From contig OX597816.1 of NCBI GenBank assembly GCA_951406725.2, positions 168,888,001-168,952,000 on the forward strand: a stretch of DNA of 64,000 nucleotides, given 5' to 3'. The translations under genes and the position numbers were made by a program. Under the pieces are notes generated by a model, which ran no database searches, was not told the origin of the DNA, and saw nothing but the letters and a program-made list of their open reading frames with translations. Shown piece after piece: positions 18,040 to 54,765 of the stretch; the stretch's first letter is position 1; the number at the start of each line of letters is the position of its first letter. This DNA comes from Octopus vulgaris (Eukaryota).

Positions 18040-19533
18040 AAATACAGTAAATCTAGACTCATTGGAGAATATGACAGTCTCCCAAAATGCTAATGGCCTC
18101 TCCACCATCTCACTGGCCCAGTCTTCTCTCTGCTTGATATTGACTGGTCAAAGAAGTGGCTTCCTTCTTGCTGCTCTGCCATAGTAACCAAGTTTGTGGA
18201 CATACCTGACAGATACAGTTTTATATTTAAGAGATGAATTATGTATATCATTTTCATTACTTACATTTGACGGATATTTGTCCTCATTTTGTTTGTAGTT
18301 AACACAATGCTTTGGCTGATATACTCTCCAGCCTTCATCAGGTGTCTTGGGGAAATTTCGAACCTTGGTTCTCATTCCTGGGCATATGGCGAAGTGGTTA
18401 AGAGCATGGGCTACTAGCCCCAAGATTCTGAGTTCGATTCCAGGCAGTGACCTGAATAATAATGATAATAATAATAATATTGAAAAATACCTTAGGAATG
18501 AGAACCCAGGTTAGAAATTTCCCCAAGACACCCGATGAAGGCTGGAGGGTATATCAGCTGAAAGGTTGTGTTAACAACAAACAAGATGAGGACAAATATC
18601 CTTCAAATGTAAATAATGTATACCTGACAGATGTTCTGGGACTGACACCATGTTCTGGTATGTCGAAGTCTTGCAACGAGGATTATCCCCCACACTTCTC
18701 TTAACAAAGACAAGGGTCCTGTCAGAAGGACCTGATCAACATGGGTGAGGTGATGTGGACTCCTTTCCCTCTCTAGTGAATTGCATAATCAGTCTGTTGA
18801 TTGTAGAAAGCAGGATCCCAAGGTTTTCTGTGGTTTTATGCTATTTCAACCTTCATAATATGGCCTTGTAGCGGTAGTTGGAATTATGTTGATGTGGCTG
18901 CATGTATGTTATCCCAAAAGTCCATACAGAGATGAAAGAATAAATACAAGATCTATACATTTACTACATAAAAATATATTTTATTCTTCTTTCGATGATA
19001 ATACATGAAATCAAATTGTAGAAAGCTAGTTGAAGTAATCTTATGCAAGAGAGTTCAGAGATAGGAAATGTAGAACAACAGTGCAGTGGCTATAGGGCGT
19101 AGAGAAATAGACATAAATAGCAATGACATGAATGGCTCCAAGTCTAATCGACTAAGAAGTGAAGAGCAGAGTTAACAAGCTGTTTTTAATAATGGTACGC
19201 TAGACATTCTAGAAACTTCCAAGAGAAACGCCAAGCTTGAATAATTAAGAATCACGTTTTGTGATAATGATGCTTCAAGAAACTCAGAAAAGGGAGGTTA
19301 CTCTATGATCTTTAGTGTAAGGGAGATCATTCAACTATCTACCTGCCCATATACCCTCCTTGAAATTCAGACAGTTCCAAGGCTTCTTTTGTACATGGTA
19401 TGATGAAATCGTCACATATAGAATCTGAGACATAAAAATGTCAATTAATAAAAAAAATATACAGCATTAGAAGTTAGAATAAACAGAAAACGATGTTTTA
19501 TGGGGTATCTTTTTACTTCTGTCATGTCTGTGT
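18040..19533 (-). mobile_element. Degenerate Tc1-type element hosting later insertions
   Basis: YYGRAARRKPLL and WETVIFSNESRF remnants; TIR at about 19505-19533 matches the one at about 7622-7650. Confidence 0.7.
18215..18619. mobile_element. Penelope-type inverted-pLTR insertion enclosing a tRNA-like Pol III head; degenerate hammerhead motif in each arm
   Basis: 13-bp TSD atacctgacagat; inverted arms of about 130 bp; one-sided extension of about 30 nt; A-box 18387-18397, B-box 18432-18440. Confidence 0.8.
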
Positions 19534-25912: not shown

Positions 25913-25927
25913 ATGCCGCAAATTACG
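25913..25927 (+). CDS. unc-45: UNC-45 myosin chaperone, probable coding exon 1 (MPQIT)
   Basis: ATCATGC context, donor ACG|GTCAGT; phase 0 joins EISEATALKEKGN. Short, so less certain. Confidence 0.6.
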
Positions 25928-27344
25928 GTCAGTGCTCCCTACTTTGTTTATCGTTTATACTTTTCTCGTCAACATTATGATTATTTTTTTCTTGTTTTTG
26001 TGATTTTTAATGACAATGAAAAAAAAAACTCTTACTGATACTGCATAAATGTAAACACGCAAATACAAATTTCTGTATTGTTCATATAGAAATTTTACGG
26101 AGTCTACCAAATCTAGAACTTTCTCCCGTGTCCCTTTTTTTTGTTTTGGGGGTATATTTCTCGTATTATTTTTCTGTTTTTAATCGCAGTAGTATTTTCG
26201 AGGTTATATTTTCAGTAAAAAAAAAACCAAACAAAAAAAACGACCGCTAATTAACTTAATAAACGTTTGATTAAATGGTAATATTAATGGTAAAGTTGTG
26301 TTCTAAGTTATGTACTATAGGTGCTGGTGGGGGCAAACAGACACAAATAATTATATTTGACAGGCATCTATGCAGTTTTCTTCCACCAAATTCACATTGT
26401 GTTTGTCTGCTCGGGACTGTAATGGAAGACACAGGTGTAACGCGGAAGGACTGAACCTGAAATCAAGTGGTCTGCAAAGCAAGTTTTTTAATCACACCAC
26501 CATGCGTGCACCTGTTACTGCATAACTTGCTGAAATTTTGCACAGATATGTTTTCTAGAGTGTATAATACGATGTTGTTGACAATATAGCCCACCCTTAG
26601 TCTTTTCTTTCACAACTCTTTTTAAAATGGTATTTTGCGGAAATGTTTTTTCGAGATCGTAGATTACTTAATGCCGATATTTCAAGCATATTAATCAGAA
26701 ATTGGTGATAATTAAAGTCGAGGTGTAATTTACATCCTCGAAAAAATTTTCGAGGCGTAGTTTACATCCTTGAAAAAATATCTACAAAATGTTATGAATT
26801 CGAAGCGAGTTATGAGAAAATAAAGACGCAAATGGGCAGAATGATGCAAGACTATTTCCTAATATTTTTTTATAGTATTATCAAATTAATCGTAATCGTC
26901 ACCCTCGTAAATTTCTTAAAAAATATGCATTTCAGAAAGTTACGGAGGAAAAAAAATTCTGTTGGGTCGGAATACGCCAATGTGATTGATGGCCATGCTC
27001 TTACGGACAGCAGGAATTTTCTTCTGCCTTAGAAAATGCTCAGACTTTTACCCAAATTGACTTAGTAATAGCAGATTGATAAGACCAGACTAGTGTCGAG
27101 CTGGAAGCTGTTAGCAAAACAGATGTTGCAACACCCTTCCTTCAGTTTCAATGTCTTTGTATACCTTTTGGTCTCGAACATTCCAGTATTTCTTAGACAC
27201 TATCCTATGGGATCTACCCTATGAGTTTACTTATATTGACATTTTATGAGTGGCAAGTTCCATGGAAGACAAACATGAACAACACCTCAAAATTTTGTTT
27301 GAATGTTCATGAGACTATGGGATTGTTACTAACTCTCATATGTA

Positions 27345-27650
27345 TCATCATCATCGTTTAACGTCCGCTTTCCATGCTAGCATGGGTTGGACGGTTCAAC
27401 TGGGGTCTGGGAAGCCAGAAGGCTGCACCAGGCCAGTCAGATCTGGCAGTGTTTCTACGGCTGGATGCCCTTCCTAACGCCAACCACTCCGTGAGTGTAG
27501 TGGGTGCTTTTTACGTGCCACCGGCACAGGTGCCAGACGGCCACGATCGAATGGTGCTTTTTAAGGTGCCACCAGCACAGGGGCCAGGCGAGGCTGGCAA
27601 CGGCCACGATCGGATGGTGCTTTTTACGTGCCACCGGCACGGAGGCCAGT
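27345..27650 (-). mobile_element. RTE family R 3'-UTR copy
   Basis: (CAT)n tail plus internal gtgccaccggcac units. Confidence 0.85.
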
Positions 27651-28205
27651 TCCTAATTTCATCACTTCCCTCCTTGGGATATACTATTGACAAGGAAGGA
27701 ATTTATCTACTCTGTGGAACAAAATCAATCCTTGAATTTCCTACTGCATATTCACTACACATTTGTGTTGGTATTTTATTCCCCATTATGTCAAGGTAAT
27801 TCAATTCTTCATGCATTTTCTCATAAAAAAAAAAGGAACCTCAAAGTAAACAACCTGCAACAGTTATGATGAGGATATATCTAAAATCTGGGAGGCATTT
27901 TCAATAGCCTAAAATATGTATACATTTTCAAGATTTTAACATACACATATGCACACAAAAAAAAATTAAAAGATTCTATCTTTTATCTTCACTTATGCAC
28001 TCAAGCATGTTTTTAATAACACTTTTGACACTTGGCAATGGCTAACTGCCATGTGGAAAAGTATTGTAGCAGCTGTTTTCAGGGTTGTTGCAATCATATG
28101 ACATTTTAACTTTATGAATAATCAGATTTGGACATGATGGGGAGTAAATCACATCATCTGTGTTGTTTGAGAGGAAGATTTTTTTGTTTTTACTATAGGG
28201 ATAAT

Positions 28206-28637
28206 AAATCTCTGAACGAGGTATAAACAGTAACTGCACGACAATCTGAGGTATATTTGCCATCTCAATATGTCTAACCACTAAGGGTGGGTGTTACTGT
28301 AGCTTGTAGCCCCAGGAGAACATCTCCAGCTGGCTTTAGGCACACTTTCTGTGCACTTAAGGTATTTCAAAGGGAGGTCATCCTTCCCTCGTCAACCTAA
28401 GTGATACGCCCGGACTGCATCGAAAACCGGTGATTGTCGTACGCTGATGACAGGTCAATACCTAGAAACTGCAGTCCGTGCGTATCACTTAGGTTGACGA
28501 GGGAGGGATGACCTCCCTTTGCAAATACCTTTGCAAATGCCTAAAGCCAGCTGGAGACGATGTTCTCCTAGGGCTACAAGCTACAGTAACACCCACCCTT
28601 AGTGGTTAGCCATATTGAGATGGCAAATATACCTCAC
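28206..28637. mobile_element. Penelope-type asymmetric hairpin insertion (about 170-bp inverted arms, about 41-nt extension, 14-bp TSD)
   Basis: TSD actatagggataat at 28192-28205 and 28638-28651; arms tgaggtatatttgccatctcaatatg... / ...catattgagatggcaaatatacctca. Confidence 0.85.
28438..28482 (+). ncRNA. Minimal type I hammerhead ribozyme motif
   Basis: Stem I cgtacg/cgtgcg; core CTGATGA (28444-28450); stem II agg-tcaata-cct with a C.A base mismatch; GAAA (28465-28468); stem III ac-tgca-gt (palindromic); GTC cleavage site after 28476. Confidence 0.75.
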
Positions 28638-29538
28638 ACTATAGGGATAATTCTATGAAAAATACGTCTCTTGGCCCTCTATTCTATAGTTTGACATCTG
28701 ATTAATGTGTCTCAGTTTTCCTCATTCTCTGAAATAAAGCTTTAATATATGCTAGGAAACTCACACTCCCTCTTGTCCAGATATCAATATTATTTTAATA
28801 ACATGAAAACACTCATATTTTTAACGACAAATATTGGTCTTGAAATTCTACTATCAACTACTTATGATATCACCATGGGCTCTTTGGACTGGGCCCTAGT
28901 CACCAACCTGGTGGGCCCATTCCTCCTATTTCAGATTAACGAACACTTCTCTGGGCTTAATGGGTCTCTATATAGATGTGATACTCTCTTCATATCTGCT
29001 GGGAGCTTGAAGTTAGGCATTGAGCATACATGCATGCTCTCTTGTCACAACAAGGCCAGATCCAAGAGGGGGATTAGTACAAACAACTAAACAAATTGCT
29101 AGATTATATGTTTCTTTTGTGACAGCTGATTAATGATGATAACAATAACTAATTTTGAGACTTTTGAAAGTAAAGTTGTTGAAAAAATTATGTAATTCAT
29201 AAAATTCATCGTCATTCCCTCTCTCTTTCGGAGAAGCACAAGCACCTACACGCACATATACACACATGGCAGTAACTTCCGCCTGCCGAATTCAATCACA
29301 AAGCTCCGGTCGGCTTGGGGCTATAGCGGAAGACACCTACCCAAAGTGCCACGCAGTGGGACTGAACCCGAAACCATGTAGTTAGGAAGCAAGCTCTCTA
29401 ACCACACAGCCATGCCCGCGCCCAGAAATTTATTTCTTATACTATTTGGTTAACTGGAATTTTGTTTTGGACTTTAGTTTCTGTAAATTGTGAAGCAACC
29501 ATCTCTATAATCCATTGTCATTATCACTGTTTTTTCAG

Positions 29539-29743
29539 GAGATTAGTGAAGCTACTGCTTTGAAAGAGAAAGGTAACACTTTATTTAAGAATGGCCAGTA
29601 TGAAGAAGCTGTCAGTGCCTACACAGAAGCTTTGAATATCAGCGATGTTCCTACTGAAGAGAAAATAGCCTGCCTTAAAAACCGAAGTGCTTGTTATCTT
29701 AAAACAAAACAGTATCTGTTTGCTGTTTCAGATGCTACTGAAG
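29539..29743 (+). CDS. unc-45: UNC-45 exon 2 (TPR1-2: EISEATALKEKGNTLFKNGQYEEAVSAYTEAL...NRSACYLK)
   Basis: tttttcag acceptor, G|GTTAGT donor; Hsp90-binding TPR clamp motif K..GN..F, NR.AC. Confidence 0.95.
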
Positions 29744-48979: not shown

Positions 48980-50790
48980 CTTTGTTAACAACTAACATGG
49001 AAAAAATAGATAAATAGTTACCAGGGTGGTAAAAAATCACACAAGTAAAAAGGTTGTAACTCCTTGTTTTTAAAGGTAGAAACTCCAGGTTTACATAAAA
49101 TATTTTGTATAATATATATAAATAAATAAATGGAGTTAAACGCAGGTGTTATTCAAATTCTTTTACTTCCGACACATGTTTTGAAGATATCACTGGTATT
49201 ATTCCAAAGGAATAAAATGGTTTAAAACAATGCAATCTCATCTTCGGGGAAGTGAAGACATGAAACTCATCAATAAGACATTATAATAGAAAATGATGGA
49301 TATGTATAGTGACTAACTGAACGCTATTAAGATTGTTTCAAAAAGGTAGCCTATAGAAAGAGGAGGGATAAAGTAAAGAAAAGCTAAATAAATGAGAAGT
49401 ATATGACTATATGTATATTAAATAAAACCATATAGACGAGGAAAATATATATCTAGTGAATATGGAATGTAAGAAGAAAATTAATGTTTAAATTATATAT
49501 AATGATAGAAATCACTTATATGAACTAAAGGTGTGTTTCTGCCAATGTTTACATCTGTATGCATGCTCTATAACCGTGTTTACAAGGGGATTTTTAGAAA
49601 AAAGAATAAAATATAGTTCAGAATTACAGAGAAGACAGAATTCCTTGCCTTTATCATAAGGTATCGAAATTGAGAGAATCAACCAATCTAAATTAAATTG
49701 TTTATTGTGGTCTTTTAGATAACAAATTAATTTACTAAGCCCTGTACTGTTACGTTTTTCCTATCTCTAAGTGAAGAGTAATGATTAGAAATTCTTTTAG
49801 ATAACTGAGAAGATGAGCTGCCTATATAGAAAAATACTTCATTACCAGAAGTAATTTTACACTGGTAAATAGAATCTTCAATATTAGAGTTACTTGACGT
49901 AAACTTGATTCTGTTGTAATTGACTTCAGATACAATAACCTTGTTATTAATATTTCTAGGGGGGTGGATAGTATTAGCTAAATTAATGTTAGTATTAGTA
50001 AATTAAATGTATCTATTTACCAGGTAAAAATTATGTGAGGAGATAATTTGTAAATGATCTTTTGTGTCGGAAAAAACAATCCTAACCGTGAGTAAGTTGA
50101 TAATAGAGTAATACCTAGAATTCTTTGAAAAATTCCAAATAATAGCTTCACGAAACTGCAAAGGAAGATTTGATTTAATTTGACTCCCATAAGGAATAAT
50201 CAACGAAATAGTTTTGCTACTAGTTGCCTTATTTTTAGTGTAACTATCTTTGAAAGACATAGATTTACCTTTAGAACGAAAATAGGGGTTTAAATAAGGG
50301 TTATCTCCCTTCCTCTGTTTAGTGTTGGCATATGAATTAAAATTGATATCGTTTATATCCTTACAACTAGATTTCATGTCTCCATTAGTAAAGGTAGAAT
50401 GAGATTGAATGGAATTAATGTAGGTAACTATCTCTGTATAACCTGCTCTAAGTAAGGCAGAGTTATAAAATTTGGCCTTATCATTGAAAATGTCAACATT
50501 AGCAGATAACTTCGACAATCTAAATGAAATATTCTTAACTAAGTTCCTAGTAATTGCCCTTGAATGATTACTGAATTTACTTATATAGTTAAGATTGGTT
50601 GATGGCTTGTGGTATGAGAAGTACGAAGTATTGTGTAAGCCAAGTGTAATATCTAAAAAGTTGGCCTTCATTACATCATCATCAAAAACAATGCTTAAGC
50701 CCATTCTACAGAAAAACTTAACTAAACTATTCTTAACTTTTTGTACTTTTTGGTCGGAAACATTTTGAAGGGATATATATATCAAAGCAA
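48980..50790 (-). mobile_element. 5'-truncated Penelope-like retroelement (RT C-terminus, GIY-YIG endonuclease, pLTR)
   Basis: ORF 50003-50785 contains NFLDITL...YHKP...YISKFSNH; downstream SIYQCKITSGNEVFFYIGSSS (GIY-YIG) and C..C; degenerate hammerhead at about 49163-49256. Confidence 0.85.
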
Positions 50791-51950
50791 AATAGCTAGT
50801 TGTAAAATCTCAAGAAGAAATAGAGTAGTAACTATACTAACAAGTACACTTAATTGCCACCTCAAAATGGCTGTTCCATGTTACTATTAGTTTCACCCCA
50901 AGCAGATCTGTCGACTAGTTATCGTTGCAGCAGTGCATCCTAGGAGGGAGAGTGGACCCCTAACATCCTCTAGCAGACAATGGGATTGCGAGACTGACTT
51001 AGTTTCAAGCTGGCTGGTTCATCCTCAGTCATGAGTATCTTGTGACCAAAGCGATAGCCAGGGCCTGCTCCAGCCAGCAATATATTGTAAGCAAAGTGAC
51101 CTTCGGTCACTGATTTGCAACAAGCAAAATAGCTAGTTTGTAAAATCTCGAGTAGAGATCAGAGTAGTAGTACTATACAGGTTTTTGTGCTGGTGGTGGT
51201 GGTGGTGTGTAGAGGTTTTCAGTATAAGAGATTTCTGGTATAGTTGATGGGGATGGGAATGGGTTGGCGGGTCGTGGACAATTAAAAGGCCAACTTCATT
51301 GCAAGAAATAGTAGCAAAGACAGATAGAAACATGAACGAGAGAGAGAGAGGAACTTGAAAAAACTTGAGACATCATTGCAAAATATGGAATGGCTGGACG
51401 TCTTTCTATTTCCTTTAGCAACAAGATTAAGTTTCTATATTTATACAAAACCTTTTGTCTTAGTGTTCTCTTTTTTCTGTTTTCTCTTTTTTTTTTTGTT
51501 TTAACTTGTTAGAAACAAACAAAACCTGATGATGTCTTTTTGTCTAGGAAGGAACACAAGATAATCGAGTTGAAAATTTGAAGTCTTGTATTTTTCATTT
51601 TTTATTTTGAATCTGAAGTAGTTCAATCTTTATTTTATTATATGTATTGTATTGTGCTCTTTTGGTGGATTACTATTATCATTATTGTTGTTGTTAACTG
51701 GCAGAACCATTAGTGTGTCAGACAAAATGCTTCATGACATTTTTGCTGACTCTTTTATGTTCTGGGTTCAAATACCACCAAGGTCAACTTTACCTTTCAT
51801 CCTTTCTGAGCTGATAAAATAAAGTACCAGTGAATTACTGGGGTAGGTGGGTGTAATTGATCGATCCCCTTACCCCTAAATTTTCCGGCCTTGTGCCAAA
51901 TTTGAAACATTATTTTGATTACAATGTATTTAAAAAAAAAATTTTTTTAG

Positions 51951-54621: not shown

Positions 54622-54765
54622 CATGCTAATGATAAGATCACAACTTATGCTGCAATTACTGTATTTGTGAATCTGACCAATTCTTATGATAAACAAGATG
54701 TACCAGAAGAGATTAAAGAATTAGCAAAATTTGCCAAGCATCATGTACCTGAAGACCATCCAAAG
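54622..54765 (+). CDS. unc-45: UNC-45 exon 14 (...VNLTNSYDKQDVPEEIKELAKFAKHHVPEDHPK)
   Basis: cttcatag / AAG|GTAACT; UCS loop LAKFAKHHVPE.HPK signature. Confidence 0.97.

Follow-up and report, generated by a model that had tools for sequence, protein, structure and literature searches.

The 432-nt insertion in the first coding intron of the Octopus vulgaris unc-45 gene (positions 28192-28651 with its flanking duplications, numbered in the window, by which we mean the whole 64,000-nt stretch of contig OX597816.1 analysed here) consists, judged by its sequence, of two truncated copies, joined head to head, of a dispersed, non-coding hammerhead retrozyme with a unit of about 353 nt. We consider it probable that this pair was inserted by the reverse transcriptase (RT) and endonuclease of a Penelope-like element (PLE), and that the copy itself is inactive, as predicted folding suggests. 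More tentatively, and with rather more doubt than confidence, we propose that an active lineage of the family has swapped U3-A8 and G10.1-C11.1 for C3-G8 and C10.1.A11.1 within a circle-forming retrozyme. This retrozyme would have a U-snRNA-type promoter of its own, would be copied into DNA by Penelope proteins that prime on both target strands at two fixed RNA sites, and would be parasitised at its start site by Tx1 LINEs.

The general anatomy described in an earlier note on this DNA holds up well. The two copies of a 14-nt target-site duplication (TSD; 28192-28205 and 28638-28651) are 100% identical and enclose 432 nt, with the last 5 nt of the left copy also matching the long end of the element. 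Between them lie inverted arms that pair in three pieces (28247-28419 with 28470-28636; 97%, 86% and 95% complementary), together with a one-sided extension of 41 nt (28206-28246, minus strand) that belongs to the left arm only. The left arm (28206-28419, minus strand) corresponds to retrozyme unit positions 1-222 in antisense, matches the family at 95%, lacks the catalytic core and begins in the palindrome of stem III, 7 nt before the cleavage site. The right arm (28420-28637, plus strand) runs from about unit position 302/304 to 353 and then from 1 to 177/178, where it stops at the short 3' end; it carries a small private rearrangement near 28528-28539 and has no upstream promoter motif. The arms meet head to head at 28418-28419, a 2-nt overlap common to both, and base 28419 falls on unit position 303, which is both a LINE target and the predicted transcription start. 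The extension spans unit positions ~179-222 and is the stretch that separates the family's two fixed 3' ends, the short and the long one. The element as a whole has a predicted fold of -314.2 kcal/mol (z -27.9).

A type I hammerhead core occupies 28444-28476 of the right arm (plus strand), with cleavage predicted after C28476. The claimed core and GUC at 28474-28476 are indeed present, with a stem I of 6 bp (one G-U), a stem II of 3 bp and a palindromic stem III: C3-A9 lie at 28444-28450, C10.1.A11.1 at 28451/28464 at the base of the 3-bp stem II with its 6-nt loop, G12-A14 at 28465-28467 and the stem III palindrome at 28468-28475. Stem I extends over 28420-28500, where 28438-28443 pair with 28477-28482 and 28420-28434 with 28484-28500. 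The layout follows the type I consensus (C3-U4-G5-A6-N7-G8-A9, G12-A13-A14, A15.1-U16.1 and H17, in three helices with helix I open-ended) and departs from it at the quasi-conserved G10.1-C11.1 closing pair, which is C.A in the main lineage. A descriptor search of the kind that the earlier note had called for found 1 type I site in the window, against 1 in total in 150 shuffled windows. An Rfam scan of the window gave no hammerhead match for this copy at E up to 10, and none was found in five of six further loci; the sixth, from a distant sister lineage, matched HH9 at 28.9 bits (E 0.0012), so that no match exceeded the 52-bit cut-off.

The family from which the two arms derive is large. A 22-mer from the body of the unit has 1,390 exact genomic matches (reversed control 0), and the core pattern has 170 strict and 240 relaxed matches (reversed controls 0), while a search of the genome with the right arm returned 2,941 first-look candidates, of which the best 40 were scored. 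At several loci the units are arranged in tandem with periods of 352-356 nt, longer copies reading through tail, spacer and next core, and at C11:67969241/67969595 two cores lie 354 nt apart. The longest stop-free frame in the unit is 62 codons, and the longest arm among the sampled copies is 543 nt. As a circle, the unit is predicted to be structured (z -5.3) with stem I formed; in the free unit, stems II and III have predicted pair probabilities below 0.1. We therefore find the features of a non-LTR retrozyme, namely tandem non-coding units, within the 150-450 nt range of such elements, that each contain a single type I hammerhead, are dispersed in many copies with TSDs and apparently have no LTR/PBS/PPT architecture. 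A literature search, to which the supplements of PMC7229834, PMC4209133 and 10.64898/2026.07.22.740005 were external, yielded no account of this family or of any cephalopod retrozyme, nor of a natural C10.1.A11.1 lineage, a two-ended retrozyme footprint or a Tx1 LINE targeting a hammerhead repeat.

The host gene is identified by an exon at 54622-54765, whose PDB matches are solely UNC-45 chains (5/5, E 7e-10 to 1e-9). Contig joints define a first coding exon of 5 codons followed by a GT donor (25913-25927, plus strand) and a first coding intron of 3,611 nt that contains the element (25928-29538, plus strand), and, with a TPR match, exon 2, which encodes a TPR domain (29539-29742, plus strand). 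The joint from 25926 to 29538, with GT..AG ends, was found in contigs of two runs from different studies, which we guess to be RNA, and was absent from two DNA-type runs. Because these contigs skip 3,611 nt with GT..AG ends, the element can be placed in the first coding intron of unc-45, on the sense strand, as previously proposed, and the intron is spliced. Contigs of both presumed RNA runs cover the element and are uninformative on strand, ends and level. The left edge of the insertion was found in two DNA-type runs labelled as other organisms, and an empty target site was not seen among the 15 joints listed of about 3,000.

Within this intron the copy is most likely inert, and is predicted to be silent. 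The suggestion that pairing of the long arms competes with the ribozyme agrees with the predicted folding, in which the upstream arm pairs over the cleavage site: the left arm, transcribed first, is predicted to engage stem III, the GUC and the 3' strand of stem I. In nearest-neighbour energies, which ignore tertiary contacts, forcing the hammerhead fold is predicted to cost 7.3 kcal/mol in the free unit versus 16.7-26.5 in the window copy (16.7 once stem I is complete, 26.5 in the full element). The copy has a single core and no -58 motif, and its arms are 93.6% alike against a family mean of 95.4%, a divergence in keeping with the age of the family. Its cleavage site would be masked by the upstream arm in unc-45 pre-mRNA and, lacking a second core or a promoter, the copy would be a passenger. 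That the ribozyme is instead active or co-opted, modulating unc-45 pre-mRNA, seems to us scarcely credible: its core is identical to the family consensus, it lies in the sense orientation and its left edge recurs in the two runs labelled as other organisms, but its cleavage site is predicted to pair immediately upon transcription, it has no second core in cis, its arms have diverged like those of other copies, and an equally perfect core is present at 170 loci. The hairpin is a by-product of insertion, seen at 95 of 178 loci, with no sign of a role for unc-45. The intronic copy is ordinary and unlikely to matter for the gene; it is the family that makes a good substrate for work on retrozyme mobilisation and core tolerance.

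The element was originally filed as the solo inverted pLTR of an autonomous PLE, whose ORF-bearing master would then reside in the genome. Inverted arms, a tail and a TSD are PLE hallmarks, according to excerpts of PMC3846280 and PMC8557442, and homology to pLTRs is described for the retrozymes of Xenopus (10.64898/2026.07.22.740005). The octopus genome contains RT-GIY-YIG elements whose 781-aa frames are open; an ORF combining RT and GIY-YIG was found neither in the unit nor contiguous with it. A GIY-YIG family search scored 150 of 6,136 candidates, and among the 54 of 148 listed loci that were examined by blastn and nhmmer the unit was the terminal repeat of none; one weak match to it lay on the opposite strand. 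With two PLE proteins, tblastn matched 8 of 223 loci, and the three of these that were read (L271, L058 and L264), as well as L287, proved to be separate insertions, one with its own 12-nt TSD and the others split from the unit by simple repeats. Candidates for a pLTR-ORF-pLTR arrangement, with matches 3-6 kb apart, resolved into a LINE inside the unit (L128) and, in the other cases, separate insertions. Copies that reach far upstream of the core always enter a previous unit through its tail. The pLTR filing is thus not borne out, and we regard such a master element as quite unlikely, although a rare one could have been missed because the searches score the best candidates only. What the data describe is a tandem, non-coding retrozyme unit.

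Several RT-GIY-YIG families are found in this genome. One young family (L121-L124), in which many 781-aa frames are open, has an upstream ORF and a CX4CX2C linker and is unlike the unit; this linker type is linked to microsatellite targeting in excerpts of PMC8557442, and families that carry it are therefore candidates only. Another (L287:981-3410, L288, L296, L282, L064) has a minimal hammerhead-like motif in its 3' repeat, which also displays two different 3' ends. In the window itself, positions 49727-50809 (minus strand) contain broken ORF pieces of 268 and 91 aa, which we take to resemble an RT thumb and a GIY-YIG-like motif.

It is the manner in which copies end and join that points to insertion by PLE proteins. 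Head-to-head pairs make up 95 of 178 loci, with no tail-to-tail pair. A short and a long 3' end, ~44 nt apart, are combined in 70 of the 74 classifiable pairs (22 of 96 pairs were unclassifiable), and the same was seen in 16 of 17 pairs from a fresh set of 57 loci, as well as in 35 of the 38 classifiable pairs among 44 head-to-head pairs at 63 loci that follow one another on a single contig and were picked with the body 22-mer. The short arm extends further 5' in 48 of the 70 pairs and the long arm in 17, the two lengths being uncorrelated (rho 0.02), and 39 of the 70 joints overlap by at least 2 nt. The longest flanking repeats centre on 11-14 nt, many targets being (TA)n, where the TSD is ambiguous. 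The insertions are thus inverted, 5'-truncated copies with a one-sided tail and a TSD, as expected if PLE proteins mobilise them: PLEs have an inverted pLTR with an optional tail of 30-40 nt (excerpts of PMC3846280 and PMC8557442), and purified PAc cuts and extends both strands, has two RT start sites that bound the tail, and inserts without ribozyme cleavage (PMC11167929). As for the template, 49 of 116 arms continue across the cleavage site, at which 5' ends show no clustering (2 of 116 in unit positions 1-10), and 18 are longer than one unit. A cleaved linear monomer was rejected as template since arms cross its ends, and arms of this kind, some longer than one unit, imply that the templates are uncut multimers or circles.

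For the head-to-head joints and tails of PLEs, self-priming by fold-back of a single cDNA, with the tail left by endonuclease trimming of the intermediate, has been proposed (excerpts of PMC3846280 and PMC8557442). Such a course would be compatible with 22 of the 70 pairs, and the two arms of an insertion resemble each other more closely than unrelated copies do (95.4% versus 91.1%), with 59 of 371 rare variants in common versus 1.1%. This similarity, however, would be explained equally well by one template or by one active subfamily, and is compatible with one as with two RNA templates. In 48 of the 70 pairs, moreover, each arm has sequence that is absent from the other; these include the window copy, whose short-end arm extends further 5' and whose long-end arm alone is tailed. 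Since neither arm of these pairs can be a fold-back of the other, both were likely primed on RNA, one event per strand, and we hold fold-back to be very improbable as the origin of the hairpin.

Instead, we favour priming on both strands. Tandem source loci would be transcribed from unit position 303, under a U-snRNA-type promoter in the preceding unit; two hammerheads, paired through the palindromes of their stems III, would then release unit-length RNA by cleavage, and this RNA may form circles like those of mussel and axolotl. A Penelope protein would nick both strands of AT-rich or (TA)n target DNA about 12-14 nt apart, from each nick an uncut multimer or circle would be reverse-transcribed, starting at one of the two sites, and the two cDNAs, after stopping at random, would be joined by a few complementary bases to give the hairpin, the one-sided tail and the TSD. 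Two minor features of the joints were also recorded. At five loci (L009, L033, L052, L058, L153) arms end 5' at unit positions 176-180, which is the short start site, yielding tail-unit or tail-unit-tail copies (a post hoc observation), and three independent insertions (L092, L094, L167) have an identical joint, unit position 75 with 344, the short and long ends being swapped in one of them.

Like the non-LTR retrozymes of coral, mussel (350-390 bp) and axolotl (330/350 bp) described in excerpts of PMC7229834 and in 10.64898/2026.07.22.740005, the family has a tandem unit (~353 nt) that is non-coding and contains one type I hammerhead, a 2-bp stem III with a tetraloop, a structured predicted circle, TSDs of more than 4 bp and PLEs in the same genome. 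It differs from them in that the sampled copies are short and mostly head-to-head with two fixed 3' ends, an arrangement not described in those sources (the word 'inverted' has 0 occurrences in the excerpted text of PMC7229834), and in the C10.1.A11.1 of its main lineage. With the EN+ PLEs, including PAc from Anolis (excerpts of PMC3846280 and PMC8557442; PMC11167929), it has in common an inverted 5'-truncated copy, a tail at one end, a TSD of about 9-14 bp, AT-rich or microsatellite targets and two 3' ends downstream of the hammerhead; unlike them it has no ORF, and both arms consist of non-coding unit sequence. By these traits the family would behave as a non-LTR retrozyme of the metazoan kind that is moved by a PLE.

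The hammerhead itself had been taken for a minimal one of the PLE type in the earlier note. The minimal hammerheads described in excerpts of PMC4209133 have a long helix II, an unpaired base after A9, a short helix I, little or no helix III, and G10.1-C11.1. In contrast, the motif studied here has a 3-bp stem II with a 6-nt loop and a symmetric C.A, a long extended stem I, and a 2-bp stem III with a tetraloop, and thus the canonical layout of a retrozyme. It resembles the PLE type in its palindromic 15.2-16.2/loop 3 region, its expected activity as a dimer and its U3-A8 variant.

Conservation of the core among genomic copies was strong. In 109-122 arms, G5, A6, A9, G12, A13, A14, A15.1, U16.1 and C17 are conserved at 97-100%, as against 58% at position 7, the position that is left free in hammerheads; 60 of the loci were chosen by similarity or core, a choice that inflates conservation but would fix position 7 too. 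A covariation alignment was made from 92 of 112 extracted cores plus the window copy, 20 being left out for indels, cut flanks or greater distance, and in it 9 of 26 pairs change on both sides versus 4.1 +/- 1.2 in shuffles, which relatedness alone can beat. The 92 distinct rows have C3-G8 in 77 versus U3-A8 in 9 and, at 10.2-11.2, A-U in 64 versus G-C in 25, a compensatory change, with 10.1-11.1 unpaired in 81; stem I is 96% and stem III 99% paired. Conservation and covariation of the core among copies, which the earlier note had named as a test, were thus both found. Stem III has one and the same palindrome in 128 of 148 cores and three other palindromes in 9, the 11 non-palindromic cores being scattered and none occurring more than twice, which lends support to the idea of cleavage as dimers. 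As for the mismatch, which had been proposed for checking against the family consensus, C.A is present at 10.1-11.1 in 91 of the 100 matches listed, of 240. The mismatch is therefore a trait of the lineage rather than decay, and measured against its own family the core, 'near-intact' in the earlier note, is intact.

The variants fall into lineages. G10.1-C11.1 was found in 13 of 164 arms, 12 of those with U3-A8, while 45 of the 164 combine C.A with an adjacent G-C, and a C4 core variant has likewise been amplified (13/164 arms). In a tree built without the core columns the lineage labels cluster (20 changes versus 61 when shuffled), the C.A/G-C group being mostly one clade (35 in a clade of 38, support 0.76) and the G-C group not a single clade in this body tree (largest pure clade 5/13). 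The covariation would thus reflect a few lineage events rather than many independent ones. Since more distant lineages have U3-A8/G-C, C.A is probably derived, a polarity that is weak, the tree being unrooted.

Because G10.1-C11.1 is described as highly conserved (excerpts of PMC4209133), its replacement by C.A may lower or abolish activity, and the ribozyme could have died at that step, the family spreading thereafter only via Penelope proteins that recognise a 3' structure. In keeping with this, PAc needs no ribozyme activity for insertion in vitro (PMC11167929), arms freely cross the cleavage site and the C4 core variant was amplified too; in Xenopus, 8 of 9 predicted retrozymes gave no cleavage in vitro (10.64898/2026.07.22.740005). 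We nevertheless consider the loss of the ribozyme unlikely, since within the C.A lineage the next pair went from A-U to G-C on both sides (45/164 arms), only position 7 is free, C3-G8 is canonical, and the axolotl HHR_Amex2 cleaves despite a U.U mismatch at the base of helix II (excerpts of PMC7229834).

The putative promoter was recognised from U2 genes. The motif ATYAGT lies at -57 to -61 in 18 of 20 U2 loci, the other two having a sister LINE 3' end at U2 +1, and it occurs once in the retrozyme unit, at -58 from position 303. The U2 genes (L201-L220) form three unrelated upstream classes that have only this short motif at -57 to -61 in common. An ungapped PWM of the U2 upstream regions did not pick the -58 site of the unit, which the short motif alone does pick. 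The window's right arm begins at unit position 302-304; 5' ends at the predicted start numbered 12 versus 4.8 expected over three sets, an excess not established by the test set alone (4 versus 2.0, P 0.14). Newt satellite 2, likewise a hammerhead repeat with an internal promoter, is reported to use one of snRNA type (excerpts of PMC2220036), whereas the promoter proposed here is predicted from a 6-nt motif at U2 distance and from a common LINE target.

That target emerged from two pairs of loci with common sequence upstream of unit position ~300. One such pair is a LINE with APE, RT and zf-RVT domains and a 14-nt duplication, inserted at unit position ~303 (L128:7420-2085, minus strand; L168-L197). 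Directly after its 3' end, all 30 loci examined (the query's included) have the same 4 nt that begin the target, or these with one base changed; 20 of them align to the unit, and most of the others are sister or unrelated hammerhead repeats, one being the 5' end of another LINE. We call the LINE Tx1-like from its domains and excerpts of PMC4494074 rather than from a tree. Like Tx1L in Tx1D, Keno in U2 and Tx1-Mar (excerpts of the same paper), it is an APE-RT LINE at a fixed site of another repeat; the site here differs in being the predicted start of hammerhead retrozymes, and being targeted is a trait of the family, not of the window copy. A second LINE family occupies the same unit position (L140, L157, L198, L199), and a near-identical LINE 3' end lies directly before +1 of two U2 genes (L206, L213). 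Two loci 1 Mb apart (L260 and L261) have common sequence upstream of unit position 313, owing either to a third inserted element or to a segmental duplication. Further hammerhead lineages are targeted by the same LINE (L172, L182, L187, L188, L197; L176, L179; L175, L191), among them U3-A8 cores that have G10.1-C11.1 and different stem III palindromes, and a family in which position 4 is C and U.U lies at the foot of stem II.

The return of retrozymes to the genome, and the origin of the Penelope tail and inverted repeat, have so far been proposals. For these the family provides a quantitative footprint, with one short and one long end per insertion and arms that are not fold-backs, as well as a substrate of 353 nt, with two predicted start sites, for direct use in a PAc-type assay; in its lineages the hammerhead core comes in matched natural variants. 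If the broader reading is true, the thousand-odd copies would amount to a natural mutagenesis of that core, along with a genomic read-out of a two-site Penelope mechanism.

The window holds a second head-to-head element, at 18203-18635, with a TSD of ~13 nt and a one-sided tail. The earlier note had assigned it to a different family, and we find no similarity between the two elements, the second being unlike the 353-nt unit. Its hammerhead-like motif, in which stem II is longer and A9 is followed by an extra base (as in the minimal type), is damaged in both arms, and a relative of this element is present in locus L290.
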